In this document: positions 162-20,311 of the stretch, piece by piece | Layout: the number at the start of each line of letters is the position of its first letter | Numbering within the stretch: position 1 is the stretch's first letter | From: an uncultured archaeon | GTDB lineage: Archaea; Asgardarchaeota; Lokiarchaeia; Sigyniarchaeales; SOKP01 | Assembly (NCBI GenBank): GCA_964508365.1 | Contig: CAZDTP010000014.1 | Span: 1-64,000, forward strand | Length of the DNA stretch: 64,000 nt | Direction of reading: 5' to 3' | The notes under the pieces: model-generated | Told to the model about the DNA's origin: nothing | Database searches by the model: none | What the model saw: only the letters and a program-made list of their open reading frames with translations | Translations under genes and position numbers: made by a program

Positions 162-722
162 CTAAATTTTTCCAGAAGTTTTAAGGATTTCTAGCGTCAG
201 TATCTTAAAAATTTCGCCTATTGAATCGCCTTCTTTCGCACTTGTTTCAAAATATTTCATAGCATGCATTTCACTTTTTACAGCTTCTCCATCCTGTTCT
301 GCTACTTCCCTTTGACCTTGTTTTGCTAAATCAAGTTTATTGCCAACGACTAAACTCGGTTTTTGCCCAATAACTTTTTCAACTTCGTCTCGCCATTCTA
401 GTAAATCTGCGAACGAAGAACGTCTTGTCAGATCAAACACATAAATTATACCAGTAGCTCCACGATAGAATGGAGGTCTAACAAATGAAAAATGTTTTTG
501 GCCAGCGAGATCCCAAAGCTGAAGTTTAACTTGTAGTTGCGGGTGATCTGCCAATTCTACAGTTTTAGTGCTGAAATTTGACCCAATTGTCATTAAATAA
601 CTTTCTTTAAAAGAATTTTCGCAATATCTTAAAACCATGGAAGTCTTTCCGACGCCACCGTTTCCCACGACGCAGATTTTATAAATGAATGATTTTTGAT
701 ATTTTGTGTGATTTGAGAACAT
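162..722 (-). CDS. Rab-like small GTPase (Ras superfamily)
   Basis: G1 GNGGVGKTS, G2/RabF1-like TIGSNF, G3 WDLAGQ, RabF4-like FYRGA, G4 NKLD, G5 ETSAK. No C-terminal prenylation cysteine. Confidence 0.92.
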   Translation of the reverse strand: MFSNHTKYQKSFIYKICVVGNGGVGKTSMVLRYCENSFKESYLMTIGSNFSTKTVELADHPQLQVKLQLWDLAGQKHFSFVRPPFYRGATGIIYVFDLTRRSSFADLLEWRDEVEKVIGQKPSLVVGNKLDLAKQGQREVAEQDGEAVKSEMHAMKYFETSAKEGDSIGEIFKILTLEILKTSGKI

Positions 723-1722: not shown

Positions 1723-3438
1723 TTATTTTCTCAAGCTCTTTTTATCAACTTTACCTACCGTAGTAAGCGGTAATTCTTCTGTTATTTCTATTATTTTTGG
1801 TACTTCATATGGAGAGCAATTCTCTTTAGCAAACGCTGTAATATCCTTCTTTAAAGCTTCCTCGTTTCCGTCGTAACTATAATCAGGATCTAATTGTATA
1901 ATTGCTTTAACGATTTCAGAGCCTGGTCTTTCAGGGTTATCAACACCTATCGTAGCAACCATCCCAATAGCTGGATGTTTAACTAAAGTATCTTCTAATT
2001 TTGCGGAAAATACCTTAAATCCACCGACAATTATCATATCTTTCGTTCTATCCACGATTTTAACGTATCCCGCTTCATCCATTAAACCTACATCTCCAGT
2101 GTGCATAAAACCATCTTTATCTATTGCTTGTTTAGTTTCTTCGGGTTTATTGAAGTATCCTTTCATAACTTGCGGACCTTTAACACAGATTTCACCAGCT
2201 TCTCCTAAGGGCACATCCTTACCTGTATTGGGATCTACCAACTTAAATTCCTCATTGGTTAGTGGTAAACCAATACTACCAAGTTTTTTAACTCCTACAG
2301 ATGGATTACTCGCTGTAAGAGGGGATGTTTCCGTCATACCATACGCTTCGATTAATTTACCTTTACCTACAATAGCTTCGAGTTCTCTTTGAGATACTTC
2401 TGGAAAAGGTGCAGCTGCAGAAACGCAAAAGTCTAGTTTCGAATGGTCTAGTACTTTAAATTTAGGATTTTTCATCAAAATTTGATATAGTGAAGGCACA
2501 TTTGCTAAAACTGATGGTTCATATTTAGCCATTTCTTTAATAATATGATCTGAATCTCTTGGGTTTGGTATTAAAATTTGACTCCAACTGAGGTAGATTA
2601 CATTTAAGGTTGTAAATGTCCCTGCGATGTGGAAGAATGGGAATCCTGAAAGCGCTACTCCTTTCCCTCTTTCCCAATTAAGCCATTTCTGAAATATAAC
2701 TATATCAGAGACTATGTTTTTATGGGTTAACATTGCTCCTTTTGGAGGTCCTGTGGTTCCACCAGTATATTGAATGAATGCTAAATCATCAGGTTTAAAA
2801 ACTGCTTTTGGTAACTCTTTAGAATAGGTAGTTAGCATGTCTTTGTGAAAATCCATTACTGTGACTCCTTCTAAAGGAGTAATCTTTCCTTTTGGAATTT
2901 TACCAATTAATTTTCCTAAAACTTGTTTTATTTTTGGAAGGTATCCTCCTACACTAGTAGCTATTGCTAATTTTAATTGCGGTATTTTTGAAGCGATTTT
3001 TGTCAATCTACCAGCAAAAATTGCATCTAAAGTTAATAGTGCGACTTTATTCCCTCCAGATCCCAAATCGTTCAGTTGATATTGCATTTGCATGTCTGAA
3101 AGAAGAGGTGAAACGCCTGAAACAATACAGCCTGCTTTTAAAGTACCAATGATTCCTATTAAATATTCTGGCATATTTGGTAAATTAATACCCACAACAT
3201 CTCCGGTTTTAAATCCGTTTTCAATTAACATGTTGGCAAATTGACTTGAAGCCTCATCTAAATCCTTGTATGTAAAAATTACCCCCAAATAATCAAAGGC
3301 CATTTTTTCCGGAAATTCTTCCATTGTTCGTCTAATAGCTTGGGGATAAGTCATTTCAAACTCCTTAGGGTCCAGATCTTTGACATGACTATCCCAAGAT
3401 TTTTTCCATATTTTATCTTTATACGACATTTTTAACAT
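1723..3438 (-). CDS. Long-chain fatty-acid-CoA ligase (AMP-binding family), copy 1
   Basis: QYTGGTTGPPKG, YGMTETSP, GEICVKGPQVMKGY, TGD, DRTKDMI and terminal GKVDKK motifs. Confidence 0.93.
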   Translation of the reverse strand: MLKMSYKDKIWKKSWDSHVKDLDPKEFEMTYPQAIRRTMEEFPEKMAFDYLGVIFTYKDLDEASSQFANMLIENGFKTGDVVGINLPNMPEYLIGIIGTLKAGCIVSGVSPLLSDMQMQYQLNDLGSGGNKVALLTLDAIFAGRLTKIASKIPQLKLAIATSVGGYLPKIKQVLGKLIGKIPKGKITPLEGVTVMDFHKDMLTTYSKELPKAVFKPDDLAFIQYTGGTTGPPKGAMLTHKNIVSDIVIFQKWLNWERGKGVALSGFPFFHIAGTFTTLNVIYLSWSQILIPNPRDSDHIIKEMAKYEPSVLANVPSLYQILMKNPKFKVLDHSKLDFCVSAAAPFPEVSQRELEAIVGKGKLIEAYGMTETSPLTASNPSVGVKKLGSIGLPLTNEEFKLVDPNTGKDVPLGEAGEICVKGPQVMKGYFNKPEETKQAIDKDGFMHTGDVGLMDEAGYVKIVDRTKDMIIVGGFKVFSAKLEDTLVKHPAIGMVATIGVDNPERPGSEIVKAIIQLDPDYSYDGNEEALKKDITAFAKENCSPYEVPKIIEITEELPLTTVGKVDKKSLRK

Positions 3439-3627
3439 CGATTTCTTATTATTTGATTTTTATTGTAAAAAAAGTGTTAAAAAATAGAAATGATTCTTTT
3501 CGATATAAAGTTTTAAGTTTTAAATTTCTCGTGAGAACCATGTAACAAAAGAATTCCAGAAGTAGTTTAGGTTATTAATTGTAATAATAAAAAACAAAAA
3601 AAAAAAGAAATTAGATTATAAAAAATC

Positions 3628-5355
3628 TTATTCACTTCTTAAAACTTTCTTATCTACCTTACCAACAACCGTTAGTGGAAGCTCTTCTGAGATTTCTACT
3701 AATTTTGGGACTTCATAGGGGGCGCAATTTTCTTTTGCAAAAGAAATTATATCCTCCTTTAATGCTTCTTTATTCCCATCAAATTCAAACTCGGGATCTA
3801 TCTGTACAAATGCTTTCACTATTTCAGATCCAGGTCTATCTGGATTTGGGATGCCCACTAACGCGACCATTCCGATTGCAGGATGTTTAGAAAGGTTATC
3901 TTCTACTTTTGCACTAAAAACCTTAAAACCTCCTACAATAATCATGTCTTTAGTTCGATCGACAATTCTGAGGTACCCATCCTCATCCATTATTCCTACA
4001 TCCCCACTATGCATATAACCGTCCTTGTCAATGGCTTTAGCCGTTTCTTCAGGTTTCATCCAGTATCCTTGCATTACAAGTGGACCTTTCACACAAATTT
4101 CTCCAGGTTCTCCGAGAGGTACCACTTCACCTGTATCGGGATCCACAAGTTTCAGATCGACATTTTGTATCGGCATACCTACTTTACCTAGTTGTTTTTC
4201 CCCAATAGATGGGTTCATAGTGGCTACAGGACTCAATTCTGTCATCCCATAAAGTTCTAGTAATTTTCCTAGACCCACTATCGCTTCTAGTTTTTCCTGA
4301 GATTCTTTTGGAAACGGAGAGGCTGCAGAAATGCACATTCGTAATTTGCTGTGATCCAAACGCTTAAACTTTTTAAAATTTATTAATATTTGATACAAAG
4401 ATGGTACATTTACTAGAACGGTCGGATTATATATTTTTATTTGATTACAGATATGAAGCGCATCTCTGGGATTAGCAATGAGGATTTGACCCCACCCTAA
4501 GGAAAGAGCACCTTCGCACACCGTTAACCCCGCAATGTGAAATATTGGGAAGCCAGATAATAACATTCCATCTCCTTCTTTCCATTGTAACCAAGCTCTA
4601 AGACTTAACAAATTAGATATACAATTTCGGTGACTCAGCATAGCACCCTTGGGTGGTCCCGTTGTTCCACCAGTGTATTGGATCCAGCCAATATCATCTG
4701 GTGAAATATCCACTTTTGGTAATTCATTAGAAAATTTTGCCAAAACATCGTCTTGGTAATTATACACGACCTTTCCTTCTATTGGAGTGACTTCTCCAGA
4801 AGGAATATCTTGAACCGCCTTAATTTTAGCCTGTGATTCTTTATCAAACGATCCGACAACACTCGTCCATACAACAACCTTTAATTTTGGTAATTTATCA
4901 GCAATTTTTTTCAATCTATGTTCAAATATTGCATCAAGTGTAACTAAGGCAACCTGTTTTTCTCCTTTACCAAGATCTTCTAATTGATACTGCATCTGAA
5001 TGTCAGACATTAAAGGGCTAACTCCCGACACGATACAACCTGCTTTAAGTGTGCCCACTACGGAATAGATATATTCTGGAATATTTGCTAAATTAATACC
5101 TACAGCGTCTCCTTTCTTAAACCCATTTTCAATTAACATATTAGCGAATTGATTGGAACGCTTGTCTACATCGTTGAAGGTCATTTCTAAGCCTTGATAA
5201 GAAAGAGCCATGACATTTGGATATTTATCGAATATCTCTCTCATAAACTCAGGATAAGTGGTTTCGAACTCTTTCGGATCGAGATCAGTAACGCCTGGGT
5301 CCCAATTCTTTCGCCAAAATCTACTTTCGTACGGACTTGACATTTTTTTTGTCAC
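3628..5355 (-). CDS. Long-chain fatty-acid-CoA ligase (AMP-binding family), copy 2
   Basis: QYTGGTTGPPKG, YGMTELSP, GEICVKGP, DRTKDMIIVGGFKV. Colinear paralog of 1723..3438. Confidence 0.93.
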   Translation of the reverse strand: MTKKMSSPYESRFWRKNWDPGVTDLDPKEFETTYPEFMREIFDKYPNVMALSYQGLEMTFNDVDKRSNQFANMLIENGFKKGDAVGINLANIPEYIYSVVGTLKAGCIVSGVSPLMSDIQMQYQLEDLGKGEKQVALVTLDAIFEHRLKKIADKLPKLKVVVWTSVVGSFDKESQAKIKAVQDIPSGEVTPIEGKVVYNYQDDVLAKFSNELPKVDISPDDIGWIQYTGGTTGPPKGAMLSHRNCISNLLSLRAWLQWKEGDGMLLSGFPIFHIAGLTVCEGALSLGWGQILIANPRDALHICNQIKIYNPTVLVNVPSLYQILINFKKFKRLDHSKLRMCISAASPFPKESQEKLEAIVGLGKLLELYGMTELSPVATMNPSIGEKQLGKVGMPIQNVDLKLVDPDTGEVVPLGEPGEICVKGPLVMQGYWMKPEETAKAIDKDGYMHSGDVGIMDEDGYLRIVDRTKDMIIVGGFKVFSAKVEDNLSKHPAIGMVALVGIPNPDRPGSEIVKAFVQIDPEFEFDGNKEALKEDIISFAKENCAPYEVPKLVEISEELPLTVVGKVDKKVLRSE

Positions 5356-5721
5356 ATATTTTCTGTTTTTGATTAAATAAAATTTGTTAATAATTAATAC
5401 TGACGATATTAGTTAAAAAGTTTTGAATTTTTGATCATTTATTTAGAATGTTTGGTTGAAAAAGTAGAACTCGATAATTTTAATTTCTATTAAATTGGTG
5501 CAATGATTTTTGTCGATACATTAAAAGCTCGAAATTACAAATCTTTTTTTATTTTTACTTTCACTTTCCTCTCTCTGTCTCCATGAAATGCTAATTCTTT
5601 TAAAGAGAATTACTCTTCTAGCTTAAATAATTATCTTACGAAATTTATTTATGCTTCTAGCAAATTTTAGAAAATTGTCGGAGTTACACAATTTTAGTTT
5701 GAGGTATACTTCACCTAGATA

Positions 5722-6477
5722 ATGTCTTTCAGATCGGGGTTAAAAGTGTATCGGAAAAACAAGAGAGTTCCCTTAGTTTCGAGCGGCGATTCAACGCTGG
5801 ACGAGCTATTGGGAGAGGGTGGTTTCCAAAAAGACTTGGTTTATCTTCTTTATGGAGACAAAAAAAAAACTTCGAACATTTTATTAACCACTTCTGTTAT
5901 TGCTCAGAAATCTTTTGCTAATGGCGGTCTTGGAGAGGAAATTAAGGTTGCGTATATTGACGCAAATAATCGCTTTAATCCATATAATGTAAGTAAATTT
6001 GCTGTTTCCCAAAATTTATCACCTCGAAAAGTGTTAGAAAACATCCTTATTGCTCGTGCGTTTACTTGGGATCAAATGGTAGAACTTCTAGAGAATAGAC
6101 TCTCCAAACTTGAAGACATAAAAGTTGTTCTAATCTCTGGCATCACTACGCTATTTCAAGGCTACGAAAAACAGACTTTTGAAGATTTACTAAGAGCTAT
6201 AAGTGGGATTAAAGCAATTCTGTACAAAACAAAACCTTTAATCCTCTTAACTGCTCCAATGAACGAATATTCTCTTTACAGGCCCAATGGAGGAAAAATT
6301 CTTTCCCACTTCGGAAGCGTATTAATAATGATAAACGAAGACGAGCGATACACCGAATATGTTCTTGTTCAACACCCTTACTTGCCAGAAAATCGCCTTC
6401 TAAAATGGAAGCCGCGCCTTCCTAAAAGAAATTTGGCAAATACTACGAAAAACATGACTTTAGATTGCTGGGTTTAG
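5722..6477 (+). CDS. RadA/RecA-fold protein with degenerate ATPase motifs (PolB2-associated, ImuA-like)
   Basis: GDSTLDELLGEGG, AYID and 'LENILIARAFTWDQ' match the RadA core. Walker A reads YGDKKKTS; the Walker B strand VVLISG lacks the Asp. Confidence 0.8.
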   Translation: MSFRSGLKVYRKNKRVPLVSSGDSTLDELLGEGGFQKDLVYLLYGDKKKTSNILLTTSVIAQKSFANGGLGEEIKVAYIDANNRFNPYNVSKFAVSQNLSPRKVLENILIARAFTWDQMVELLENRLSKLEDIKVVLISGITTLFQGYEKQTFEDLLRAISGIKAILYKTKPLILLTAPMNEYSLYRPNGGKILSHFGSVLIMINEDERYTEYVLVQHPYLPENRLLKWKPRLPKRNLANTTKNMTLDCWV

Positions 6478-6540
6478 CTTTAAGAAATGTTTAAATATTT
6501 ATAACATGAATCGAAATAAGAATAAAAGACATTTGAAAGT

Positions 6541-6951
6541 TTAATCTTTCTTTTTATAGAAGTTAGGATCCTTTTCTTCGAGGGTTAAAGGATCTCCACC
6601 ATATTGAACTTTCTTACCTCTATAGTAAAGCTCTGATTTCTCCTCACAAATCTCGTTCCATTTGTTAAGACCTAACTTCTCAATCATTAATAAGTTATAA
6701 ACCTTTGAGTTGTGTGGTGTAAAAATCTCGAAACTAACAATGGGCTGCAATTTCTCGCATGGGAAGTCTTTACATTCGTAACAGAACTCATAACCTTTAT
6801 TTGTGATGCATTGAAAGGTTTTACATACTGGAAATTTCGATATCTGGCCCTTAAGCGTTCGGCAACCCTTGCAATTAAAGGATTGAACTCCGGGACACCT
6901 TTTGCAGTAAATTCCACAAGGAGCGTGCCAGTTTTTTAATTCTTCATTCAC
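6541..6951 (-). CDS. DUF3795-like Cys-rich protein
   Basis: APCGIYCKRCP...CKGCR...CKTFQC...FCYECKDFPCEKL cysteine pattern. Confidence 0.75.
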   Translation of the reverse strand: MNEELKNWHAPCGIYCKRCPGVQSFNCKGCRTLKGQISKFPVCKTFQCITNKGYEFCYECKDFPCEKLQPIVSFEIFTPHNSKVYNLLMIEKLGLNKWNEICEEKSELYYRGKKVQYGGDPLTLEEKDPNFYKKKD

Positions 6952-7117
6952 AAAAAAAAATGTGAGGAATCATTTAAAAACATATTGAGAGCTAAGAAGA
7001 AGAGAACGACTATCTGAGTTATACCAAAAAAATTAGTAAATTTCAAAGGTATTTTTCTTTAAATTTCCTTAAAGACTTACTAGCGAGATACTTGAAATAA
7101 TACCGAACGTGTAAAAT

Positions 7118-7390
7118 ATGGGAAGGACAGTACCTGCTTTTAGACCCGCTTTAGAGCACGAAATAGAAAGTTGGAAAGAGTTCAAAAGAGCACTTAGGGC
7201 AGAGGACCAAACAATTTTTAATAAATTGATGAACTACGCTAGAATCCATGCTGATGCTGGAAGCCTAGGAGCTCGCCCAATGCTCTCCGAAATTCTCTTT
7301 ATTTCGTTTGCAATTGAACAAGAAAGGAAAATTGGGCAATTGGAGAAGAAAATCGAAGAATTAGAGGAATTAATAAAGGGAATAGAATAA
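7118..7390 (+). CDS. Small helical protein associated with PolB2 (arCOG07300-like)
   Basis: MGRTVPAFRPALEHEIESWKEFKRALRAEDQ N-terminus with a coiled-coil tail; ends 2 nt before polB2. Family assignment is from memory of PolB2 operons. Confidence 0.72.
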   Translation: MGRTVPAFRPALEHEIESWKEFKRALRAEDQTIFNKLMNYARIHADAGSLGARPMLSEILFISFAIEQERKIGQLEKKIEELEELIKGIE

Positions 7391-7392
7391 AG

Positions 7393-9855
7393 TTGGATTC
7401 GCAAACGACTTTTAATGGGTGGCTTCTAGATGTATCCACATATAGCGAAGGAGTTATCCTCTGGGTAAAAACCGCAAAAGAACAGAAAGTAATAAGAATA
7501 TATCACCAGTTCAATCCCGAATTTTTCGCTGCTCCTAAAGATGATGTTGGTAATGACCTAAAGAGAATGCAATATATTCTTACTCAAAATCAGAATGTAA
7601 AGAAAGTCCGTATCTGTGAAAAATATGTGAAACTAGAGGACCATGAAAAAACGAAAGTTCTTGGCGTCACTGTTGAAAAACCGTCGGTGTTTAAGAAAAC
7701 TATAAAAGAAATCAATAAAATAGGATTATTTACACTGTTTAATACGGATCTCCCAATTACTCAGATGTACTTCTATGTCAACGACCTTTTCCCTATGTCT
7801 TTTTGCTGCTTTAAGATTAAGGTCGAAAATAGCAGCGGGAAGAATGATAGATTTTTACGTCTTGTTTCTATAGATTTACAGGACGATAATGAAGAACTTT
7901 TCTACGATTTACCCCCACTAAGAGCCGTCTGGTTAGATGTAAAAATTAATTACCAAGGAATTAAGCCATATTATAACGATCCTATTTCTTATGCCGAAAT
8001 CAGTATAGTTCAGAATGATGAAGACAATGTTCCTCGGGCAGATGGGTACAAAAAACGGAAAATAGTAATTGACAAGAGAAATGAAGCTGAAATTTTAAGG
8101 ACTATCAGTAAAGAAATAGAACGCCTTAATCCCGATATTATCCTTACGCAAAATGGGGACGAATTCCTCTTCCCTTACTTGGTTGCCCGGGCTTCGGAGA
8201 ATCGAATAACAAGTGACCTCTACTTATCCCGAGATAAGAAACCATTGGCAAAGTGTATCTTCGATCTTTCGGGGGGTTCAGACCACTACATGTCCTATGG
8301 TATCATTAGGCGTCGTTCAAGAACTCAAGTGTACCTAACTGGTAGATTTCACTTAGACACAACCACTTACGCCAGTCTTCACTTTTCTGAAGGCAATATT
8401 CCCGGAGTTATTGAAGTTGCCCGCATATCGAGAATTACACTCCAAAGATTAAGTCGCGTGACCATCGGAGGAGCGCTCCAATCAATACAGTTTTATTACG
8501 CTTACAAGCTTGACCATCTGATTCCTCCATTCAAGAAAAATCCCGAAGGGTTCAGTACTGGAATGGATTTAATAAAAAGCGACCGTGGTGGTCATATCTT
8601 CGAACCAATCATTGGAGTATTTGACCAAGTGGTAGAACTAGATTTTTCCTCGATGTATCCTTCTTTAATGGCCAACTTTAACATCTCATCAGAGACTATA
8701 AATTGTAAGTGCTGCAAAGACGATGGCACTGGTATAAAAGTTCCGGGATTGGACTTTCATATTTGTTCAAAAAGGGAAGGTATTATATCAAAAGCTATAA
8801 GTTTGCCATTAAAAAAGAGATTGAAGTACAAAGAATATGTCCGCAAAACTGGAAATGTTCGCTATAACTTCACAGATATCGCTCTTAAATGGGTGCTTGT
8901 AGTAAGTTTTGGATATTTAGGCTTCAAAAATGCTCGATTTGGAAAGATAGAAGCGCATCAGACAGTTTGTGCTTTTGCTCGCGAGTTTCTCATGCGTTCT
9001 GCTGAGATCGCTGAAGAACACGGATGTAAAATTATACATGGAATTGTCGATTCAATATGGTTGAAAGACACAAAAAATCGGAGTCCTGAAGAATTCGAAC
9101 AAATCTCAATAGAAGTCTCAGAAGAAATCACTAAAAGCGTAGGTATTCCAATGAGCTGGGATGGAAGGTACAATGTAATTGTTTTTCTTCCCTCTCGTGC
9201 AGAACCAGACATCCCAGCGCTGAGTCACTATTGGGGTATTAAGATCGACGGAGAAATAAAAGTACGAGGCGTCGAAGTCCGACGTAGAGATGTACCAAAA
9301 ATCGTTAAAGACGCACAGTATGCGTTTATAGATGTGTTTCAGGGAGTAACTACGACCGAAGAATTCATGAGAAGAATCCCAAAAGCCAAGAGCATGCTCT
9401 ACCGTTACATAGACAAGATAGAGACTGGTAAAGTTTCGCGTGATGAACTTACAATTCGCCAAAGAATTTCTAGAAAACCTTCACAATACAAGGTAAACTC
9501 CTATCAAGCTGTTGCTGCAAGACAATTAGAAAGATCAGGTGTTGTGGTGACTCCTGGTAAAAATGTACGGTATATTATACTGAATGCCGAAGCTGATCCT
9601 GAATTTCCTGAGAAGAAGGTAATTCTATCAGACATCTACGACGATAAAAAGCATCAGTATGATAAGAAAAAATATGCCGAACTACTGAAAAGAGCTTTTG
9701 AAAGCATATTTCCTTTTGAGTTTCCTGAACTAGAAGAAATGGTGAAGTCAGATATCATGAGAAAATCTCATCAAATGGATATGTCTTGCTACATTAAGGA
9801 ATCCGATTTAAAAAGTACTCAGCGTAATCGAAGATACGGCAATGATAAAGACTAG
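7393..9855 (+). CDS. polB2: Family B DNA polymerase, PolB2 group (degenerate exonuclease, variant motif C)
   Basis: Motif A DFSSMYPS, motif B KWVLVVSFGYLG, motif C HGIVDS instead of YGDTDS, exonuclease acidic residues degenerate. TTG start. Confidence 0.88.
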   Translation: MDSQTTFNGWLLDVSTYSEGVILWVKTAKEQKVIRIYHQFNPEFFAAPKDDVGNDLKRMQYILTQNQNVKKVRICEKYVKLEDHEKTKVLGVTVEKPSVFKKTIKEINKIGLFTLFNTDLPITQMYFYVNDLFPMSFCCFKIKVENSSGKNDRFLRLVSIDLQDDNEELFYDLPPLRAVWLDVKINYQGIKPYYNDPISYAEISIVQNDEDNVPRADGYKKRKIVIDKRNEAEILRTISKEIERLNPDIILTQNGDEFLFPYLVARASENRITSDLYLSRDKKPLAKCIFDLSGGSDHYMSYGIIRRRSRTQVYLTGRFHLDTTTYASLHFSEGNIPGVIEVARISRITLQRLSRVTIGGALQSIQFYYAYKLDHLIPPFKKNPEGFSTGMDLIKSDRGGHIFEPIIGVFDQVVELDFSSMYPSLMANFNISSETINCKCCKDDGTGIKVPGLDFHICSKREGIISKAISLPLKKRLKYKEYVRKTGNVRYNFTDIALKWVLVVSFGYLGFKNARFGKIEAHQTVCAFAREFLMRSAEIAEEHGCKIIHGIVDSIWLKDTKNRSPEEFEQISIEVSEEITKSVGIPMSWDGRYNVIVFLPSRAEPDIPALSHYWGIKIDGEIKVRGVEVRRRDVPKIVKDAQYAFIDVFQGVTTTEEFMRRIPKAKSMLYRYIDKIETGKVSRDELTIRQRISRKPSQYKVNSYQAVAARQLERSGVVVTPGKNVRYIILNAEADPEFPEKKVILSDIYDDKKHQYDKKKYAELLKRAFESIFPFEFPELEEMVKSDIMRKSHQMDMSCYIKESDLKSTQRNRRYGNDKD

Positions 9856-10034: not shown

Positions 10035-10589
10035 TTAGATAATAAAAGGAAACAGAAAGAAGTCTAAAAAGATAGCAACTAAACATATAAATTCCATTAT
10101 AACCCATAAATTTCTTTTTATGCTCCTTAAACCTTTGAGGGATTTCCCTGAATAACTAATTGTATTGTAGATTATAATCATTATCCATGCAACTACCAAA
10201 AAAACGATAGGGAGCAATAACGCGTATAATACTTGTCCGATAAAGTCTAATAAGTACACATAACCCAAAATTGAAAAACCGATTATAACTAAAGTAAAAC
10301 CCATACCAAAAGTATATTCTGCGAAGCTCACGAATCGATTAACTTTTATCTCATCAAAATCCTCTAATTTTAGCTCAAATTGCGCCCTTGAATTTGCAGA
10401 AACAGAATTTACAAACAGAATAAATGCTATCATTAGCAAGAAAGTAACTGTAACAATTCCTCTTGTTGGAGGTACCTGCCATACTAAAGCAAGAATCGTT
10501 AATACTGCTCCAATCATGACAGTGCTAAGAACAATCCAATCCCTTACGTTTAAAATTGTGTTTTGGCTTTTCTCTTCCATTTTACTCAC
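10035..10589 (-). CDS. Hypothetical membrane protein (about 5 TM)
   Basis: 184-aa ORF with several hydrophobic segments; no family recognised. Confidence 0.75.
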   Translation of the reverse strand: MSKMEEKSQNTILNVRDWIVLSTVMIGAVLTILALVWQVPPTRGIVTVTFLLMIAFILFVNSVSANSRAQFELKLEDFDEIKVNRFVSFAEYTFGMGFTLVIIGFSILGYVYLLDFIGQVLYALLLPIVFLVVAWIMIIIYNTISYSGKSLKGLRSIKRNLWVIMEFICLVAIFLDFFLFPFII

Positions 10590-10774
10590 GATAAATATTG
10601 TTTATATTTAATTTATTTTTTGAACTAATTATTATAAAATTTCTCTTTTTCATCAAAATTTAGTAATCAATTGAAGTTTTCGTATTTTTTTTGAATTTGT
10701 TCAGTTAATTGTTCAAAAAAATATTCAATATATTTATAAATGAATATTTCATATTAATGATATGAAGGTGGTTA

Positions 10775-11740
10775 ATGATGGAAATAATGAATGAAATGAA
10801 TAGAAAAAAATTGATTATCGAATCACAAAAATATGGAGCTATAAGCCTACGGCGTCAAAAGTTAAGGGTGCATAAAAATGGAGCAAAATTTCCTATAAGT
10901 AAAGCGTATATTGATGACGAACTCCTAGATCCTGAAATTTCTTATACTCTTATTTTAATACCTGAGATCAAGATTGCGAACCAAACAATTGTTTCCCTAA
11001 CTTTTTTTAATAGAAAAAGAGGACCACTTATCTACTATTATTTTCCTGAGAATTCTTTAAATATGACAGAAAAAGCTATCATAACCGATATAATGATGTC
11101 CGCATCTAATGAAAGATACTTTATTCAACAATCGAGTAATTTATCTTCATTAAATTATTATTTTGAAATTTACTCTGATTGGGCTCGCGGGAAGAAAGAG
11201 ATGTTAATGATTAGTGTTATCCTCAATACGAAAATAACTAAGTCAATTGAAGACGTGGTTCTTTCGATTTGTATCGATTTTCAAACAGAATTGACATCTA
11301 TTAAAGATATCTACAAGGCATTATATGATAAATTTTTAGATTCATTTTCCGATGAAGAACAATCTGATATAGAAAAAATCAGTAGAGATTTACATATGAA
11401 AATAAAAGAATTTTATAAAAAAATAAGAATGTTAAACAGTCAAAAATTTGCAAAGGTTATATTCAAAGGTTCAATGGAAATCGAAAAGAAATTAGACTTA
11501 ACTCAAATAGCTCAAGGAATTCAAGAGGCAGAGTTTAATCCAGAGAGATTTCCAGGATTAGTTATGAAAATTGAGAAACCAAGCGCCACAATTCTTTTAT
11601 TTTCTGATGGTAAATTAATGATAACCAATTTGAAAAATACATCTGAAGTAGATACATTGGTTGATATTTTTATGGAAAAACTTAAGAGTATAGGTATCAT
11701 AATACCTAAACCAGAAATTACATTAGAAAGTACCAAATAA
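10775..11740 (+). CDS. Multidomain protein: AbrB-like N-terminus, longin/uDENN-like domain, single TBP repeat
   Basis: C-terminal KLDLTQIAQGIQEAEFNPERFPGLVMKIEKPSATILLFSDGKLMIT is a TBP repeat. Central FFNRKRGPLIYYYFPE and SDWARGKKEMLMISVI resemble the FLCN/SMCR8 uDENN. Confidence 0.78.
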   Translation: MMEIMNEMNRKKLIIESQKYGAISLRRQKLRVHKNGAKFPISKAYIDDELLDPEISYTLILIPEIKIANQTIVSLTFFNRKRGPLIYYYFPENSLNMTEKAIITDIMMSASNERYFIQQSSNLSSLNYYFEIYSDWARGKKEMLMISVILNTKITKSIEDVVLSICIDFQTELTSIKDIYKALYDKFLDSFSDEEQSDIEKISRDLHMKIKEFYKKIRMLNSQKFAKVIFKGSMEIEKKLDLTQIAQGIQEAEFNPERFPGLVMKIEKPSATILLFSDGKLMITNLKNTSEVDTLVDIFMEKLKSIGIIIPKPEITLESTK

Positions 11741-12175: not shown

Positions 12176-15100
12176 CTATATAACAATTTCAGCAAGATAA
12201 AGAACAACTAATAATATAGCCCAAATAACTGTTAGTACTATTAAAATTATAGTAGTATAAAACCTCCATTTTATTGAAATCTTCTGTTTCTTTTCAATTC
12301 TGTAAATATAAATCGCAAGTATTGCTCCTAATATAATTATTGAGGATAATATCAGAATTATTCCAAAAATAATTGAGGTTAGGTACGGTAATATTAAAGC
12401 AAATACGAATATGGTAAAACTTATCCAAAGTGTTATAAAACGTTGCATTCTTTGTTTAAAAGCTTGATCTAAATCATCTGTTTTCCCGGTAGGGAGCAAA
12501 GAGATTAAAATTCCTGAAGTCGCTATACCTAAAAGAGATGCGTGATCCCATCTCAACAGACCCAGAACAATGTTGGAAAAGAGCATCCCTACTATTATAC
12601 CTATAAACAGGCACAAAATTGTTCCTATTAATCTAAAGTGCTTTTTTAAGAAATTGAGAGTGGAATAATAAAAATTAAGAAGGATATTTTTGACTTTAAT
12701 AAGAACAAATCGTAAATTATCAATAATATTGTTTAAGAATTTTTTCAATTCTTCAAACATAAAAATAAACAAATATAACATCATTCCTATTAATAACCAA
12801 GAGAAACTCCATCCAGATGAAGATAAATTAAAAGTAATTAAGCTTAATAGCAAAAACATTAATCCGGAGTATAAAAAGGAAAATAATTTGCTTTGTTTAA
12901 AAGGTTTGAATAGAACTAAATTTATTATCATAAAAATGAATAATGCTATGCTCAAGTTTAAAATTAGATTCGGATTTATAAAAAATTCTAATGTTATAAA
13001 AAGATCTAACGATAGAAGGGTTTCAATACAGATAAAACTTGAAATCCGAAGAAAATTCCTAGCCTTATCACTTACAACCTTAATATAATTGTCGATGAAG
13101 GTCAAAATTAGTAAGATAATAAACGATAATATCGATAAATTAAACGAAATAAAATAATCTGGATTAATATAATATAAAGGCCATGTGATTAAATCGAAGT
13201 AGACGATTAGAATTAGGCACTTTTTAATTTTGGATATATTGGAACTGATATAATCCCATTCTGATATTAACCTAAATAAGTATGCGATTTGTATTATAAA
13301 GAATATTATAGTGATAGGGAAAAGGTGTGGGAAAAACAATGAATTCCAATCAATGTAGAATAAGATCGAGAAACCTATCATAACGATCCATGAAGTGATG
13401 ATAAAAAAATTCGAGGTTTTCTTTAAAAACTTTAAAATAAACTTATCCAACAAACTAATCAAATGTGTTAGAATACTTAAAATCAGGATAGCTATATGGA
13501 ATACTATACCAAATGCAGTCAACGAATTAAAGATGTTGATTATTAGAAAGGCATATAAACCTATCCCTAAGAAATTCTGCCTATTAGTTTTCCATTTTCC
13601 AAATATTTCTAGCTTTTCGGGATTAATTTTACGCCTAATATTGAAATATGAGATGTTAGTGTAAAAGTGCATTAATAAAAATATCAAAAATATATAGAAA
13701 AGTGAAGATATTGAAAAACCATATAAATATAATAAAATCAGAGAAAGAGTCCAGGAGATATTTAAGAAACTTAAACAGTGGACAACATCCATATATCCTG
13801 CTTTTAAACGCTTTATACCATATATTTCCAAAATACTAATTATGAATAGAATAATTTGAGAATAGAGTAGACTCTGGATTAAGCCCGTAAATAACACAAA
13901 GAGTCCGAGAAATAAGACCGAAATCTCTAAGTAAATTGTAAATACTAAAATTGAAAAGAGTTTCCTTGTTTTAGTAACCCATTCCTCGTTTTTTATGATA
14001 TCTTTCGATAGATGTACCGTGTAATTAGTTAATAAAGTTTCAGACAGTATAACTAATGCCATTCTTAAAAAATCGAGGATTGCGAATGTTGTAAAGAGGG
14101 CGAGCCAAAAAATACCAAAAAATATTTGGAACGCTATGAAAGTAGAGAAAAGAATAATTTTCTTATACTTATCTTCGATTGTGCGATTTAAAAAACCATT
14201 TAACAGAAACATTAGAAATGAAAAGACAGCAAGAACGAAGCTCAAGGAAGGAATTCCTAATAATAATGGGTTGTAGGCTATTAACAGGTCATTTAAAAAT
14301 AGAGAAAGGTATATACTAATCACAAGAAAAATAGTATTCAGTAGAATTGATTGAGATTGATTTTTAATTTCTTTTATTTTGCTAGCATCATATTTGGTAA
14401 CTTCTTCGATATAGTAAGAAAGGTAATGTAAAGTATAGAACTGTAAGACCAGAAATATTACTAAAGTTAACACAAATAATGTTGCATCCGTTCCTGTAAT
14501 TTGGATAAAGTATATTAATCCTCCAACCGAAATTACAAGAAATGCTACGATATTAAACAAATAAGCGATCTTTTCTAAAATTCTCTTTAAAACATGGATA
14601 TCTAATAAGGTGGAGAGGAAAAATATAGCAACGGATAATAATATCGCTCCATATAAGCTAATAGTTATTAATTCCTGAATCAATCCAAAACTTAACAAAC
14701 CAAGTTCAAAATGCGATAGTAGGGACATAATAGAATCGAATTTGGTCATACCATAATCCTTTTCAGACTCTTGTTCTTCGATTTTCTTCATAAAAATTAA
14801 TCTTGATATCGAAAAATAAGCAGAATAAATCAAAAGTGAAAGCAAAACAATATAATAGAGTGATTGAAATAATTCAATGAATAATATGAATTGTAGAGTT
14901 AATAGTGTTAATGCTAAAGGTGTAATATACCACAAGATAAAACTATATTCATATAATACCGACCTAAGAAAAAGCAAATTGACAAATATGAATATCGCAC
15001 TCAATAAAAAGATAGATCCTGGCAAGAAAACATAAACCAATGATGAAAGAGTAAGCGATGTTCCAATCGATAAAATAGATAATGGAAATATTTTTTTAAG

Positions 15101-18100
15101 GGGCATTATCATTCGAAATCTGTTAAATACAAGAATTGAGCCGCCAAAAACAGTAATTGCTAAAGATAAAGCGATGATTTCGATATTAGGAATTAATATA
15201 AACGTGTTGTAGGTGAAAAATGAGAAATTTACAACTAGTATCGACGAGATAATGATGTTAAAAAAAGTTCTGTTGAGTTTAAGGATCCTAGAAGAAAACA
15301 GACTGAAAGCGAGTATTATAAAAGAGAGGTTAATTGATATAAAGAAATTTAGAATTATTGAATTTATGATCAAGAAAAGTGTTAGGAAAATGCCAATTAG
15401 AGAAAGAAAATATGAACCTATCAGTATAATGTTCTTCAAATTTTTTAAATTTGGGAAAAATGATAAAATAACGAAAAAGAATCCCAATACGATTAGATTA
15501 ATTGATAAGTTAATTTCTAATGGTAATAATATTACTTGGAATAACATAAAAAGGAAGCTTATGTTTATGAAAATGTAGAATAACCATAAGAGAGTTATGA
15601 TCTTCCACATTTTCATTCTATAAATAACCGGCATAAGAAGAGATACTGCAAAAACAAAAAACACTATATTTGTAATCACGATATTTTCAGAAAAAACATT
15701 TTGACTAAACCAGTATAAGAAGAACAAGCTAAAACTCCAAACTATTATTAGAATTGAAGAGAAATGTCTTTTAATCCATGAGTACCAAAAAGGTAGAGAA
15801 AGCAAAACACAAATTGTAAAACTTATTATAAATGAACCACTAATGTTGATTCCAAAGAGATTTAACGCATTAGTGTTAATATTAATATCGGTAAAACTCT
15901 CGTTAATGATATAAAAATTTACGAAGGGAACAATAATCCATAACCTCCACCCTGTTTTCCATATCACCCAAGAGAATTTCCAGTAGTAAAAACCTATTGA
16001 TAGGTAGAATAGAAGAATGCCAATATTGATGGTTATAATAAGCAAGAAAGGATCCCATACAGGTAAATTAAAAGAGGCATTTAAGAAAAAATACATTAAA
16101 GTTGGAATAGAAATAATGTAGGATGAAAAAGCAATATAAAAAGAACGTCGTCTGAAATTCTCAGGAGCTTTATTATAGGTTCCCACATAAGAAATACTGG
16201 TAACGCTTAAAGTTAGAGTGAATGTCAGTATTGGATTAAAATCTATAAAAATGGGATTATTAAATAGAATATAATAAGACAAGAAACTTATTAGGTTAAA
16301 AACCATAAGCAAAACACAAGGTCGGATGAACCACTTATAAAGATCATTTTTTTGCTTGTAGTAGAAATTACCTGTTAATATTAAAAATAAGAACAGAGAG
16401 AAAGAAATGTTATAAATTAAAGGAATTACGGTATTGTAGAGTAGTAAACTAAAGGTTATAATCGATATTAATATATATAAAGCGAATTTTTCGATTACAT
16501 TAACATTCCGTATGTTTAACACAATAGAAAAGAACAAGACAATCATTAACGAAAAATTGAAATAAAAAAGATAAAAAGGGAAGTCGAATATATCGAATGA
16601 AGGAAGTAACATATAATAATTTAATGTTATAATCAATCTTACTAAAATTAACCAGCTGAGTGAGAAGTAGCTAATAATTCGAAATACAAAATTGCGATTC
16701 CTATTGGAAATAAAGAAGTAGATCATAATAATAAAAAATACATAAGCAAAATATTCGAAAACACTCGGAAAGATAGAAAAGAAAGAAAGCATAAGTAGAG
16801 ATGGACCTAGTAATATTTTTATTAGTTTGAATTCAGACACATTCTCAATTGTATCATTGTATTTAACCAGATAATAATTGAACAACAAATATATACCACA
16901 GAATAAAACAATAAGTCGTAATGGTTGATATATGCTGTAAAATGGAAAAATTTGACTGTAATTCCAATATAATTCACTGAATATAATAATTAAGACAAAG
17001 TAGAAAATATAATAGATGAGTCTTTTATAAAGTGTTTGAGAATCATCAGAGATAAAAAAGTTATTTCTTAAATAATAAATAGTAATAGGACTGATGAAGA
17101 GTACAATTACTAAAGGTAAACCAATCCTTTGTATCAGAGATAATTGAGCAGGAATAATAAGAATATAGAAACACAATAAAATTTTAATTATTACCCATGC
17201 GGATAAATCAAAAGCCCACCTGATTCTTGAAAATTCAATTTTGAATAATTTACGACTGACAGTTGATACTATTAGGTAAGTTAACAAAAATATTCCAACA
17301 TATGTAGTTAAAGTTAATAGTATAGACTCTTGAAGCTGAAATAATGAATAAATATTATGAAATGGAAACAGGAAAATAGTAAGCGAAGCTACCATAAATT
17401 CGATGAAAAAATAAAATATGTTCTTAGTATATTCGTATATTTTGTAGATTCTGTAATAATCAAATTTACTTTGTTCGTTTTCAAATATCCGCTGCTTGAG
17501 ATTTTCAATTGGAATTAAGATAATAAGATTCAAAACAAGAAATACTAATGAGGAACAACTGATATCGATTCCAACATTATGAGTTATGGAGTTTAATACC
17601 GCAAAAAACTTCGCAGAGATAATAAAAGATAAAATCACCCAGGTGATAACCTGGCAAGTTTTAATAGAAACGAAATAGGATTCTTTAAGTTTATATTTAT
17701 CAAAGAGAAATTCTAAAAAAACTAAGAATCCAAAAAATAAAGCAATTGCAGCACTATTGATTATATAATAATCTACAGCTACACCTAATCTATTAAAATC
17801 TAATCCTATTATATAAGGAAGCGAAATTACTAATCCAGATATGACTAAACTGTCTATTATTAACATTCTCTCCATAAATTTAATGAAAACATTCTTATTT
17901 AGGGAATAAAACAGAGGTAATAATAGAGATATGCCTAAGATCAGCAGAGGAATATTATATGCATAAACAGAAGTAGATAGAAACAAAAATAGATAAAAAG
18001 AGATGAGAATACTGGTGAAACACATAGTAACTATATTAAATCCATTCGAAATTTTTTCTGAAAACAAAATTCTCTTCTTTGATAAAAAATTGATAATCAA

Positions 18101-20311
18101 GCAAATAAGAACTATCGATATGTATGCTGAAAAAATTGGTTCAAATTGAAGTTGTTGGTTAAAGATGGCGAACATTATGAAGAAAGCTTCTAGCATTATT
18201 AAATAGCTGATAAACTTTTCAATTACCATAACTTTTTCCCGAGATATAATTTCTATCTTAACTCCCAATTTCAAAATGTAATAACACGCAATAGTTATAT
18301 AGAGAATATTAAGCACGATTAACGAATTTAAAATTGTAAAAAATAAAGTAGTAATTAGATAGAAATTAAATATAAAGACTGACAGAAATATGATGCTGGA
18401 GCAAAAGAAATGATATATTAGGAAGGATTTTCGATTCATAACATTTTTTTTGTGAAGATAATAAATGGGAATGTAAGAGAGCAAGCTAACTAAAATAAGA
18501 GGTACAAAAAATACTAAGAACGAGTCCTTAGTGTAAATTGTACTATAATAACCTACCATAAACAAACCTAGATATAACGTAAATGAGTTTAATATCAACG
18601 CTAGAGCCTGAGGAAAGATTTTGTATTTCTGTGAATCAAGATATATAATTAGACTTATTATCACCAATGAAAAAAATGAAGAAATAAGTAAGTCTAAATT
18701 CAAATAAATCATGAAAAATGATAGAAGCAAAACAAAAACTTCAATAGCAATGGGATAAGATATGATATTCAAAAGAGACCTAGATTTTGATTCTTTGAGC
18801 ATTCTTATTTTCTTTCCATAGTAAATTAGAATCACTAGACAAATGGATATAAACAATAGATTAAATATGGTACCAATAATTAGATGTGCGCTAAAGTAGA
18901 TTACAATTATAAACCAGTTCAAAACGAAAAACAAAACCATGAGCACCCATGAGGAAACATAAGTGTAAATTGCGATGATTTTAGGTTTTAATACCTTTTC
19001 GCCATACAGATAATAAATCGGAGCAAAACCCAAGAAAAAAAATATAATAGGGGCAATTAAATATACATAAAACTCATTTATATTTGCGTCTAAAAAGTAA
19101 AATCCAACGATACCAGTATTAAATATCAGGATAAATAATGTCAATGTTATTTTTACTTTTCTAGGAATAATTACCACATTCGAAGGAACTAGATTAAAAA
19201 CGATACCAATAATGCAACAAGAAAGGAACAAGGCAAGCAAGGCGTCCAAAAGGAATACAAGACTAAAAATCCCATAAAATAATAAGAAAATTTCAATTAA
19301 TAGAGCAAAACTGTCAACGCTAATTATTAAATTGAAGGTGGAATCTTTAACTTTTTTTAGAATCTGTCCAAATCTAAGGTTAATTAAAATAAAAACTGAA
19401 AGAAATACTAGATCTAGAAGCATAACTACAAAATTATTCCAAAAAATTATGAACATTATAAAAAAAATCGAGGACAGCAAAAACCAGCAGGCATAATAGC
19501 TATAATTTAAAGTGATTTCTCGAGAGAATATTCGAATGACATAGTTGAAAAGCACGAATAAAATGAAAACTATTGGAAGTAAAATTGAAGATAACATTAA
19601 TTCTCCTTGAAATACCTCAAGAATTCCCAATGCTACATTTTTAATAGTAACTAAAACAAACCAAGTAGTTTCTAATAGTAAAAAGAGGGCAGTAATACAA
19701 TAATTAAAAAGTTTCCAAGGTTTTTCGTATAATCGAATACGAACATAAGAAAAATAAAACGACAATAATGTTATTGCTAAGATAATAATAGTGTGAATTA
19801 ATATACTGGAGATTAAAAGTACATTTGGATCTACTGTGAACTGTAAATATACAAATTCGATTATTGGTAAGAATGAGTATAAAATTATTGTAAAACTAGC
19901 AACAACGAGCAGATTTTGAATAATTAATACCGTTTTTTCTTGAAAATATTTAAGCCTCTCAAAAAATTGAAATATTACATATAATGACAGTGTGAGTATA
20001 AGAAATTGAATATTTAAAAGCCCTATTCCCCAAAAAAATGGTAAGATCCAAAAGATAACAACGATTAACATCCCTAAGCTACTAAAAAGATATATATACC
20101 TGCCGTAAAGAATGGTAGTAAAGTTCGCTTTTTCTTCGTAATAGGTGAGAATAAAAATTATCGGTAATGTAATAGTACTGATTAAAGGATTATTATTCAA
20201 TACTGAAATTGAGAGGACTAGAAGAATTAAACTGACTGAGACAATAAAATTTAACTTTATAAAAGTGTTAATCTCACCAGTATCAACCTCTTCAGCATTG
20301 TTAGAACTCAT
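12176..20311 (-). CDS. Giant polytopic membrane repeat protein (2711 aa)
   Basis: 8.1-kb open frame in AT-rich DNA. Hydrophobic segments alternate with short basic loops along the whole length; ~184-aa internal repeats. Confidence 0.9.
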   Translation of the reverse strand: MSSNNAEEVDTGEINTFIKLNFIVSVSLILLVLSISVLNNNPLISTITLPIIFILTYYEEKANFTTILYGRYIYLFSSLGMLIVVIFWILPFFWGIGLLNIQFLILTLSLYVIFQFFERLKYFQEKTVLIIQNLLVVASFTIILYSFLPIIEFVYLQFTVDPNVLLISSILIHTIIILAITLLSFYFSYVRIRLYEKPWKLFNYCITALFLLLETTWFVLVTIKNVALGILEVFQGELMLSSILLPIVFILFVLFNYVIRIFSREITLNYSYYACWFLLSSIFFIMFIIFWNNFVVMLLDLVFLSVFILINLRFGQILKKVKDSTFNLIISVDSFALLIEIFLLFYGIFSLVFLLDALLALFLSCCIIGIVFNLVPSNVVIIPRKVKITLTLFILIFNTGIVGFYFLDANINEFYVYLIAPIIFFFLGFAPIYYLYGEKVLKPKIIAIYTYVSSWVLMVLFFVLNWFIIVIYFSAHLIIGTIFNLLFISICLVILIYYGKKIRMLKESKSRSLLNIISYPIAIEVFVLLLSFFMIYLNLDLLISSFFSLVIISLIIYLDSQKYKIFPQALALILNSFTLYLGLFMVGYYSTIYTKDSFLVFFVPLILVSLLSYIPIYYLHKKNVMNRKSFLIYHFFCSSIIFLSVFIFNFYLITTLFFTILNSLIVLNILYITIACYYILKLGVKIEIISREKVMVIEKFISYLIMLEAFFIMFAIFNQQLQFEPIFSAYISIVLICLIINFLSKKRILFSEKISNGFNIVTMCFTSILISFYLFLFLSTSVYAYNIPLLILGISLLLPLFYSLNKNVFIKFMERMLIIDSLVISGLVISLPYIIGLDFNRLGVAVDYYIINSAAIALFFGFLVFLEFLFDKYKLKESYFVSIKTCQVITWVILSFIISAKFFAVLNSITHNVGIDISCSSLVFLVLNLIILIPIENLKQRIFENEQSKFDYYRIYKIYEYTKNIFYFFIEFMVASLTIFLFPFHNIYSLFQLQESILLTLTTYVGIFLLTYLIVSTVSRKLFKIEFSRIRWAFDLSAWVIIKILLCFYILIIPAQLSLIQRIGLPLVIVLFISPITIYYLRNNFFISDDSQTLYKRLIYYIFYFVLIIIFSELYWNYSQIFPFYSIYQPLRLIVLFCGIYLLFNYYLVKYNDTIENVSEFKLIKILLGPSLLMLSFFSIFPSVFEYFAYVFFIIMIYFFISNRNRNFVFRIISYFSLSWLILVRLIITLNYYMLLPSFDIFDFPFYLFYFNFSLMIVLFFSIVLNIRNVNVIEKFALYILISIITFSLLLYNTVIPLIYNISFSLFLFLILTGNFYYKQKNDLYKWFIRPCVLLMVFNLISFLSYYILFNNPIFIDFNPILTFTLTLSVTSISYVGTYNKAPENFRRRSFYIAFSSYIISIPTLMYFFLNASFNLPVWDPFLLIITINIGILLFYLSIGFYYWKFSWVIWKTGWRLWIIVPFVNFYIINESFTDININTNALNLFGINISGSFIISFTICVLLSLPFWYSWIKRHFSSILIIVWSFSLFFLYWFSQNVFSENIVITNIVFFVFAVSLLMPVIYRMKMWKIITLLWLFYIFINISFLFMLFQVILLPLEINLSINLIVLGFFFVILSFFPNLKNLKNIILIGSYFLSLIGIFLTLFLIINSIILNFFISINLSFIILAFSLFSSRILKLNRTFFNIIISSILVVNFSFFTYNTFILIPNIEIIALSLAITVFGGSILVFNRFRMIMPLKKIFPLSILSIGTSLTLSSLVYVFLPGSIFLLSAIFIFVNLLFLRSVLYEYSFILWYITPLALTLLTLQFILFIELFQSLYYIVLLSLLIYSAYFSISRLIFMKKIEEQESEKDYGMTKFDSIMSLLSHFELGLLSFGLIQELITISLYGAILLSVAIFFLSTLLDIHVLKRILEKIAYLFNIVAFLVISVGGLIYFIQITGTDATLFVLTLVIFLVLQFYTLHYLSYYIEEVTKYDASKIKEIKNQSQSILLNTIFLVISIYLSLFLNDLLIAYNPLLLGIPSLSFVLAVFSFLMFLLNGFLNRTIEDKYKKIILFSTFIAFQIFFGIFWLALFTTFAILDFLRMALVILSETLLTNYTVHLSKDIIKNEEWVTKTRKLFSILVFTIYLEISVLFLGLFVLFTGLIQSLLYSQIILFIISILEIYGIKRLKAGYMDVVHCLSFLNISWTLSLILLYLYGFSISSLFYIFLIFLLMHFYTNISYFNIRRKINPEKLEIFGKWKTNRQNFLGIGLYAFLIINIFNSLTAFGIVFHIAILILSILTHLISLLDKFILKFLKKTSNFFIITSWIVMIGFSILFYIDWNSLFFPHLFPITIIFFIIQIAYLFRLISEWDYISSNISKIKKCLILIVYFDLITWPLYYINPDYFISFNLSILSFIILLILTFIDNYIKVVSDKARNFLRISSFICIETLLSLDLFITLEFFINPNLILNLSIALFIFMIINLVLFKPFKQSKLFSFLYSGLMFLLLSLITFNLSSSGWSFSWLLIGMMLYLFIFMFEELKKFLNNIIDNLRFVLIKVKNILLNFYYSTLNFLKKHFRLIGTILCLFIGIIVGMLFSNIVLGLLRWDHASLLGIATSGILISLLPTGKTDDLDQAFKQRMQRFITLWISFTIFVFALILPYLTSIIFGIILILSSIIILGAILAIYIYRIEKKQKISIKWRFYTTIILIVLTVIWAILLVVLYLAEIVI

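Follow-up and report, generated by a model that had tools for sequence, protein, structure and literature searches.

What could a single repeat of TBP do when it is joined to a domain of the kind that regulates small GTPases? This question is raised by an intact open reading frame (ORF) that encodes 321 amino acids at positions 10775-11740 (stop codon included) on the plus strand of a 64,000-nt stretch of DNA from the Lokiarchaeia (Asgard archaea), referred to here as the window. The predicted protein carries an N-terminal module, a longin domain of the FLCN/Nprl2/SMCR8 type with a helical hairpin, and one TBP repeat at its C-terminus, all on the plus strand. Here, we characterized these parts together with the distribution, evolution and genomic context of the gene. 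The results revealed that the fusion is real, young (genus-level) and maintained, and they point, tentatively, to a homodimeric DNA-binding regulator coupled to a small GTPase.

A single TBP repeat derived from repeat 1

The TBP half comprises residues 226-321 (11450..11737) and ends exactly at the boundary between repeats 1 and 2. A preliminary description of the sequence had proposed a TBP repeat without a second one, and profile searches confirmed this. The Pfam TBP family (PF00352) matched once, at residues 232-305 (E 2.4e-19, 69.4 bits, cut-off 22.9), and the match to the NCBIfam TBP models was confined to the same stretch and fell far under their full-length cut-offs. The two tandem repeats of canonical TBP are not present, as there is only one such stretch and the ORF stops where repeat 2 would start. 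Solved archaeal TBPs in the PDB matched at E about 5e-26, with 52.7 bits for repeat 1 vs 39.8 bits for repeat 2. In addition, the TBP half gave a confident AlphaFold model, which Foldseek aligned with TBP structures at E 1e-7 and a root-mean-square deviation of 1.3-1.9 A over 91 residues. The profile match and the TBP alpha/beta fold both place this part of the protein in the TBP (PF00352) domain. The host genome encodes two canonical two-repeat TBPs, one on contig 7 and one on contig 3. With the contig-7 protein, the half shares 47% identity in repeat 1 and 25% in repeat 2. Derivation of the half from repeat 1 of the host's own TBP is strongly supported by these sequence comparisons. No other single TBP repeat with which it could pair was found in the host genome.

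The DNA-facing roles of TBP residues are known from TBP-DNA structures, and most of the corresponding positions are kept in the fusion. Both intercalating phenylalanines that the preliminary description had recognized, F259 of ERFPG (11549-11551) and F276 of LLFSDGK (11600-11602), align with the phenylalanines of the host's canonical repeats and are retained in at least 53 of the 56 family members. Across these members, the conserved DNA-facing set consists of F259, K265 (55/56), L/I274, F276 (53/56), K280 (54/56), V/M282 and T284 (53/56). The stirrup is NPERFPG, which is of the repeat-1 type and not of the repeat-2 type EPEVFPG. In canonical TBP, the repeat-2 stirrup makes the contact with TFB/TFIIB, as seen in 1AIS, in other TBP-TFB/TFIIB structures and in yeast TBP genetics; this TFB-contacting stirrup is missing from the TBP half.

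The longin domain and its possible links to small GTPases

Folliculin-, GATOR1- and C9orf72-type longins are GTPase-activating proteins (GAPs) for Rag/Arf GTPases in eukaryotic nutrient signalling. The middle of the fusion protein (residues 69-178, 10979..11308) is predicted to have the longin topology beta-beta-alpha-beta-beta-beta-alpha. In the predicted structure, residues 72-175 adopt the longin fold with a predicted local distance difference test score (pLDDT) >90, and a helical hairpin follows to residue 222. The hairpin (residues 179-225, 11309..11449; helices 179-190 and 193-222 in both models) completes the longin module, takes part in the structural alignments to FLCN and links the longin to the TBP half. 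The best structural matches of the middle domain were FLCN, Nprl2/3, Lst4 and C9orf72-SMCR8, in agreement with the fold expected from the preliminary description. When the N-terminal 228 residues were folded alone, the best Foldseek matches were FLCN, GATOR1/SEA Nprl2/3 and DENND1 (E 7e-4 to 4e-3). In these models, the longin fold is closest to the longins of GAP complexes.

Two motifs agree with this relationship. The GP motif (11021-11026) is made up of an invariant G83 and of P84, which shows at least 90% conservation, and is situated in the loop preceding strand 2, at the passage from strand 72-79 to strand 83-90. A candidate arginine finger, R138 of a WARG motif (11186-11188), is located in the strand 4-5 loop of the predicted structure and is also at least 90% conserved. 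Human FLCN presumably has ...HGP... and ...DSLARG... at the corresponding places. The GP motif and the arginine finger together are the signature of the GAP-type longins FLCN, Nprl2, SMCR8 and C9orf72, and the pair has been reported in a class of Asgard longins (PMC12290439, Traffic 2025). With its GP motif and candidate arginine finger, the middle domain can be counted as a member of this described Asgard class. The earlier assignment to an FLCN/SMCR8-type longin was therefore upheld, whereas the label 'uDENN' that came with it is not apt in the strict sense, because neither a core DENN nor a dDENN domain follows the longin.

A connection of this longin type with small GTPases is supported indirectly by its relatives. 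The host genome encodes 69 Arf/Ras-type GTPase domains, and one of its paralogs, a 347-aa protein on contig 3, has the same longin, with the GP and YARG motifs kept, joined to a small GTPase. The GTPase part of this paralog contains the P-loop GPTNAGKST and an NKFQ motif and scores just under the cut-offs for Arf (20.8 bits) and Ras (20.1 bits); the protein also shows a faint Pfam Folliculin match. An atlas cluster of 347-aa Arf/Ras proteins has the same longin. A second paralog, of 386 aa on contig 45, combines the longin with a helical C-terminal region and belongs to a family with 70-94% identity across Lokiarchaeia, in which one 672-aa member (P0165) is fused to Arf/Ras/Roc domains. It should be noted that some sources name this family ArsR/HxlR-type regulators; these names are unconfirmed and the winged-helix regions putative. 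The best Folliculin-like ORFs of the host, all below the Pfam cut-off, point the same way: the one at 37551-38288 of contig 31 lies within the same 488-aa ORF as a GTPase domain, and the one at 3667-5635 of contig 104 is flanked by two small-GTPase genes. Longin-GTPase fusions in Lokiarchaeia have already been published (PMC10933270).

The N-terminal module and the predicted homodimer

Residues 1-68 (10775..10978) form a basic module with the signature ...VHxNGAKFxIsKxY(V/I)DD...YT.I.IPE. It is the most conserved part of the protein (78% mean column identity), with a ratio of non-synonymous to synonymous substitution rates (dN/dS) of 0-0.08. In monomer models this module had pLDDT <50, yet the full-length homodimer was predicted with ipSAE values of 0.57, 0.59 and 0.52, against 0.00 for the best control; at least 89% of contacts were common to the runs, and the partner pLDDT was at least 77. 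Of 30 proteins solved as pairs of one chain, 20 attained the mark used for a homodimer, as did 1 of 23 solved as single chains; these counts apply roughly, because an alignment of our own was used here. The confident interface consists of residues 2-65 of both copies (and 121), with symmetric contacts 60-60, 59-59, 39-39 and 38-38 and with strand 22-29 packed against strand 56-62 of the other chain. Low confidence in the monomer together with a confident symmetric interface in the dimer is the pattern expected if the domain acquires its fold only in an intertwined dimer. The preliminary description had spoken of a dimerising half-TBP. As worded, this is not supported, since the predicted dimer interface lies in the N-terminal module; the TBP halves are outside the confident contacts, which by the method's own caveat says nothing against a TBP-TBP contact.

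The N-terminus had also been likened to AbrB, that is, to a swapped-hairpin module. As a family assignment this was rejected, as no profile similarity appeared in any search. None of 41 family N-terminal segments matched PF04014, and two hhalign comparisons with seven genuine AbrB/MazE domains from the host genome yielded probabilities of 0.4% and 0.2%. No Pfam family, PDB profile match or usable atlas embedding match was found for the module. The resemblance to AbrB/MazE/SpoVT (PF04014) lies in a small, basic, N-terminal domain that is predicted to be an intertwined symmetric dimer and has a superficial G-x-x-(F/I)-P-I-x-K pattern; the module differs from that family in its lack of profile similarity, in having a single strand after a short helix and in ending at ...IPE. 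On the other hand, an exhaustive profile search recovered 44 representatives of the module at E up to 0.001. Some stand alone (58-134 aa), some form the N-terminal part of 200-410-aa proteins, and others lie in the middle or at the C-terminus of further proteins; their partners include longins, helix-turn-helix domains, ADC-like domains and a membrane protein. We regard the module as an uncharacterised autonomous domain that is predicted to mediate dimerisation and that possibly binds a ligand or nucleic acid.

Distribution, origin and selection

In the protein database, 56 clusters of 310-330 aa with 54-85% identity to the protein could be identified, all with the TBP domain, together with about 60 further clusters of ~220 aa without it. 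In a survey of 399 species genomes of the phylum, the genus of the window was the only one with the full fusion, which occurred in 9 of its 41 genomes (the window's own included). The TBP-less form was present in 13 other species of this genus, in 8 of a sister genus and in one more distant genome, and each genome contained one form or the other. A longin-only paralog (380-440 aa) was spread across the order, and the whole architecture was absent from the large atlas clusters.

In a midpoint-rooted tree of the shared part (residues 1-222), all 56 fused forms fell into one clade (support 0.91) nested among TBP-less forms. Thus, with nine TBP-less sequences inside this clade, the history fits one gain of the TBP half and a few losses. 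The tree strongly supports a single origin of the fusion, inside an older TBP-less family of ~220-aa proteins. Purifying selection acts on all parts of the protein, and in close pairs the dN/dS values of the TBP half (0.08-0.26) were similar to those of the longin (0.10-0.23). A chimera or assembly artefact, which would have made the fusion unique to this assembly, is ruled out by its recovery in nine species genomes and in 56 clusters from independent sources, by its intact frame and fixed gene context and by the dN/dS values. The preliminary description had further inferred that the protein would connect signalling directly with basal transcription in archaea. Such a connection is not supported as a feature of Asgard archaea in general, since only one genus has the fusion, in which the TBP half was added recently to an older protein without TBP.

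Promoter region and gene neighborhood

Two adjacent ATG codons begin the ORF in the window, which is AT-rich (GC about 0.27-0.39). Because orthologs have only the second ATG, with ATA or ATT before the conserved ATGGAAAT, the conserved translation start is probably at 10778, which gives a protein of 320 aa. Upstream, the gene has a TATA-like box (TTTATAAAT, 10733..10741) and, 3' of it, a Shine-Dalgarno sequence AGGTG (10766-10770), both kept across orthologous loci. Directly 5' of the TATA-like box, three phased direct repeats (TGTTCA-N6-TGTTCA-N6-TATTCA, 10698..10727) abut the promoter and represent a candidate operator conserved in the orthologous loci. The motif had 4 matches in the window vs 0.48 expected.

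The context of the gene is fixed in the genus. On the divergent side lies a gene for a 184-aa membrane protein without a Pfam family (10035..10589, minus strand), which adjoins the gene in all nine orthologous loci examined of the genus with 64-91% identity and is also found in GCA_013375495.1. On the convergent side lies a gene for a 2711-aa polytopic membrane protein (12176..20311, minus strand), whose C-terminus was found beside the gene in every locus reaching far enough and which has a 2712-aa ortholog in GCA_013375495.1. Synteny with the latter genome spans about 20 kb. In one genome (G267), this slot is taken by the TBP-less ortholog, and a separate half-TBP gene is missing. The idea of a split gene was rejected, as none was found beside the TBP-less orthologs in loci L027-L029. 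Farther upstream, at 1723-9855 of the window, are genes for two AMP-binding enzymes, a RadA/Rad51-like protein, a DUF3795 protein and a family-B DNA polymerase, in the same order as in GCA_013375495.1. A Ras/Roc gene was observed 2.6 kb from a TBP-less homolog in another genus, which is uninformative because each genome has about 69 GTPases.

A separate observation concerns the canonical TBP gene of contig 7 (26014-27421 stretch), which is preceded on the same strand, at a distance of 181 bp, by a gene for a 174-aa Arf/Ras-type GTPase. Of 30 related loci in the same taxonomic family, 27 have this tandem, with 65-78% identity of the GTPase. Within that family it is also kept in genus g10 and is inverted (convergent) in genus g2. 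In another family (f2), TBP is followed by two GTPase genes, and in most genomes of other families the tandem is absent within 3 kb. The arrangement may be plain synteny or a hint of a connection between TBP and the GTPase.

A possible homodimeric regulator and its alternatives

The reading we tentatively favor, plausible while short of probable, is that of a homodimeric DNA-binding regulator with two repeat-1 TBP halves, coupled to a small GTPase through its longin. The elements on which it is built, namely the domain identities, the repeat-1 origin, the single fusion, purifying selection and the predicted N-terminal homodimer, are shown or strongly supported. According to this evidence, a copy of repeat 1 of the host TBP was fused once onto the C-terminus of a ~220-aa protein that consisted of the N-terminal dimerisation module and the FLCN-type longin. 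Because the N-terminal dimer would hold the two TBP halves close together, AT-rich or TATA-like DNA could be bound, with the halves forming a symmetric repeat-1/repeat-1 pseudo-saddle or occupying two half-sites. As the stirrup is of the repeat-1 type, promoter DNA would be occupied without recruitment of TFB, and the protein would act as a competitor or repressor and not as a substitute for TBP. The longin, with its GP motif and arginine finger, would bind one of the 69 small GTPases, and possibly act as a GAP on it, which would make DNA occupancy dependent on the state of the GTPase. The likeliest first targets would be the gene's own promoter and the divergent membrane-protein gene; the layout of the locus, in which the divergent neighbor is conserved and conserved phased repeats border the TATA box of the gene, is the usual one for a local regulator. 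A more specific proposal, in which the protein is a natural homodimeric single-repeat TBP whose two repeat-1 halves re-form a symmetric DNA-binding saddle and whose promoter occupancy is switched by a GTPase via the folliculin-type longin, appears unlikely.

Several observations weigh against such a regulator. First, the strand-S1 asparagine of canonical TBP makes minor-groove contacts and is present in all four canonical repeats of the host genome, whereas position 227 of the fusion (11453-11455) is lysine, as in 52 of 56 members. Because of this replacement, the TATA specificity of the TBP half may have been changed or lost. Second, the nine TBP-less sequences nested in the fused clade indicate that the TBP half is dispensable in some lineages. 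Third, no regulon could be defined for the upstream repeats, as only five exact repeat pairs were found genome-wide vs one in the control. They are also kept where the ortholog has no TBP half, so they are not a site for the TBP half as such; if the protein bound them, it would therefore use another part. Fourth, eukaryotic GAP longins act as heterodimers of two different longins, and no second longin partner was identified for the fusion protein. In addition, Pfam Folliculin (PF11704) did not match the protein at E up to 10 and in the host genome hit other ORFs only, all below the cut-off (best 21.1 vs 23.3 bits). A search of PDB sequences with the longin profile gave chance-level matches only and no sequence link to FLCN. 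Finally, no GTPase gene is a conserved neighbor within the 20-kb synteny, apart from an unrelated one encoding a 186-aa Arf/Ras-type protein about 10 kb upstream of the fusion gene (162-722, minus strand).

Alternatively, the TBP half might be a mimic of repeat 1 that binds a partner of TBP and not DNA, and that thereby recruits the longin GAP/effector or the GTPase, or sequesters the partner. This partner could be canonical TBP, a factor specific for repeat 1 or some other initiation factor. The half is a close copy of repeat 1, and the surfaces of repeat 1 that partners read are therefore likely to be kept; its lysine at strand S1 departs from the canonical DNA-reading set, and the GTPase gene in front of canonical TBP could hint at a TBP-GTPase connection. 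However, among the conserved positions are the Phe, Lys and Thr residues that face DNA from the concave sheet, the convex-side helix H2 is less conserved than strands S3-S5, and the GTPase-TBP tandem is synteny at the family level only. We know of no repeat-1-specific partner in archaea. On balance, we consider such mimicry rather improbable.

A role in a trafficking or membrane system, unrelated to transcription, seems still more doubtful. In this case, the TBP fold would serve as a peptide-binding platform like the appendages of adaptins and COPG, and the protein would act with the neighboring membrane proteins. Asgard proteins that combine a longin with an adaptin appendage (Ig + TBP fold) have been described (PMC10936438), TBP-fold platform domains have been noted in adaptins (PMC3597702), and the 184-aa and 2711-aa membrane proteins are conserved neighbors of the gene. 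However, appendage platforms share the fold alone with TBP, whereas the TBP half is 47-60% identical to host repeat 1 and scores 69 bits with the Pfam TBP model, lacks an Ig subdomain and retains the DNA-contact residues. The last alternative, that the protein works like its TBP-less ancestor, with a TBP half that is tolerated as a part without function or that stems from an artefact of assembly or gene calling, draws on TBP-less orthologs at the same locus and within the fused clade, and is largely refuted and extremely improbable given the nearly invariant key residues, the intact frame across independent genomes and clusters, and the low dN/dS of the TBP half.

Relation to known systems and implications

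Among known systems, the homodimeric regulator proposed here resembles the Asgard FLCN/SMCR8-type longins (PMC12290439) and eukaryotic FLCN, Nprl2 and SMCR8 in having a longin with the GP motif and a candidate arginine finger. It differs from FLCN and SMCR8 in lacking DENN or any other of their C-terminal domains as well as a Pfam Folliculin match, and from the FLCN, Nprl2 and SMCR8 longins in its predicted homodimerisation through an extra N-terminal module. No described member of the FLCN/SMCR8-type longins contains a TBP repeat. With canonical archaeal TBP (P. woesei 1AIS/1PCZ and the host TBPs), the protein shares fold and family, both phenylalanines and most DNA-facing residues. It departs from canonical TBP in its single repeat, in lysine in place of the S1 asparagine, in the missing repeat-2 stirrup EPE(V/L)FPG and in the tethering of the TBP half to a dimerisation module and a longin.

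Single TBP-fold domains outside the two-repeat context were described in 2013 (PMC3597702) and comprise Thermococcales proteins of ~95 aa, halobacterial TbpA and the N-terminal TBP-like domain of RNase HIII. These monopartite proteins provide a precedent for a functional single repeat, and the RNase HIII domain binds duplex nucleic acid. They are stand-alone or fused to RNase H, and the Thermococcales ones are very diverged, whereas the protein reported here has a recent TBP-like copy on a longin. Asgard proteins with a longin, an adaptin appendage (Ig + TBP fold) and Vps28-C (PMC10936438, mBio 2024) also combine a longin and a TBP fold in one polypeptide. In contrast with the fusion, which has a true TBP repeat and no Ig subdomain, their TBP fold is an appendage platform that follows an Ig subdomain and has no TBP sequence similarity. 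Literature searches found no published description of a TBP-longin fusion or of the N-terminal module, in line with the preliminary description, which knew of none for this architecture, and PMC12962969 mentions neither longin nor TBP. Each domain class is known; the combination and the N-terminal module appear to be undescribed.

With a distribution limited to one genus of Lokiarchaeia, the fusion is a lineage-specific invention and not an ancestral feature that bears on eukaryogenesis as such. Its significance lies elsewhere. A homodimeric single-repeat protein is regarded as the ancestor from which TBP arose by duplication. A recent, selectively maintained single repeat in a predicted dimer offers a natural test of DNA binding, and of its mode, by a TBP like that before the duplication. 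The N-terminal module represents a very conserved predicted dimerisation domain that is common to other architectures. In addition, Asgard longins occur in fusion with GTPases, with a TBP repeat and with putative winged-helix regions, which leads to testable hypotheses about the targets that these longins regulate. If the homodimeric saddle proved true, the protein would be a living analogue of the hypothesised TBP before duplication and, together with the GTPase-TBP tandem of the same family, it would mean that some Lokiarchaeia wire small-GTPase signalling directly into transcription initiation.

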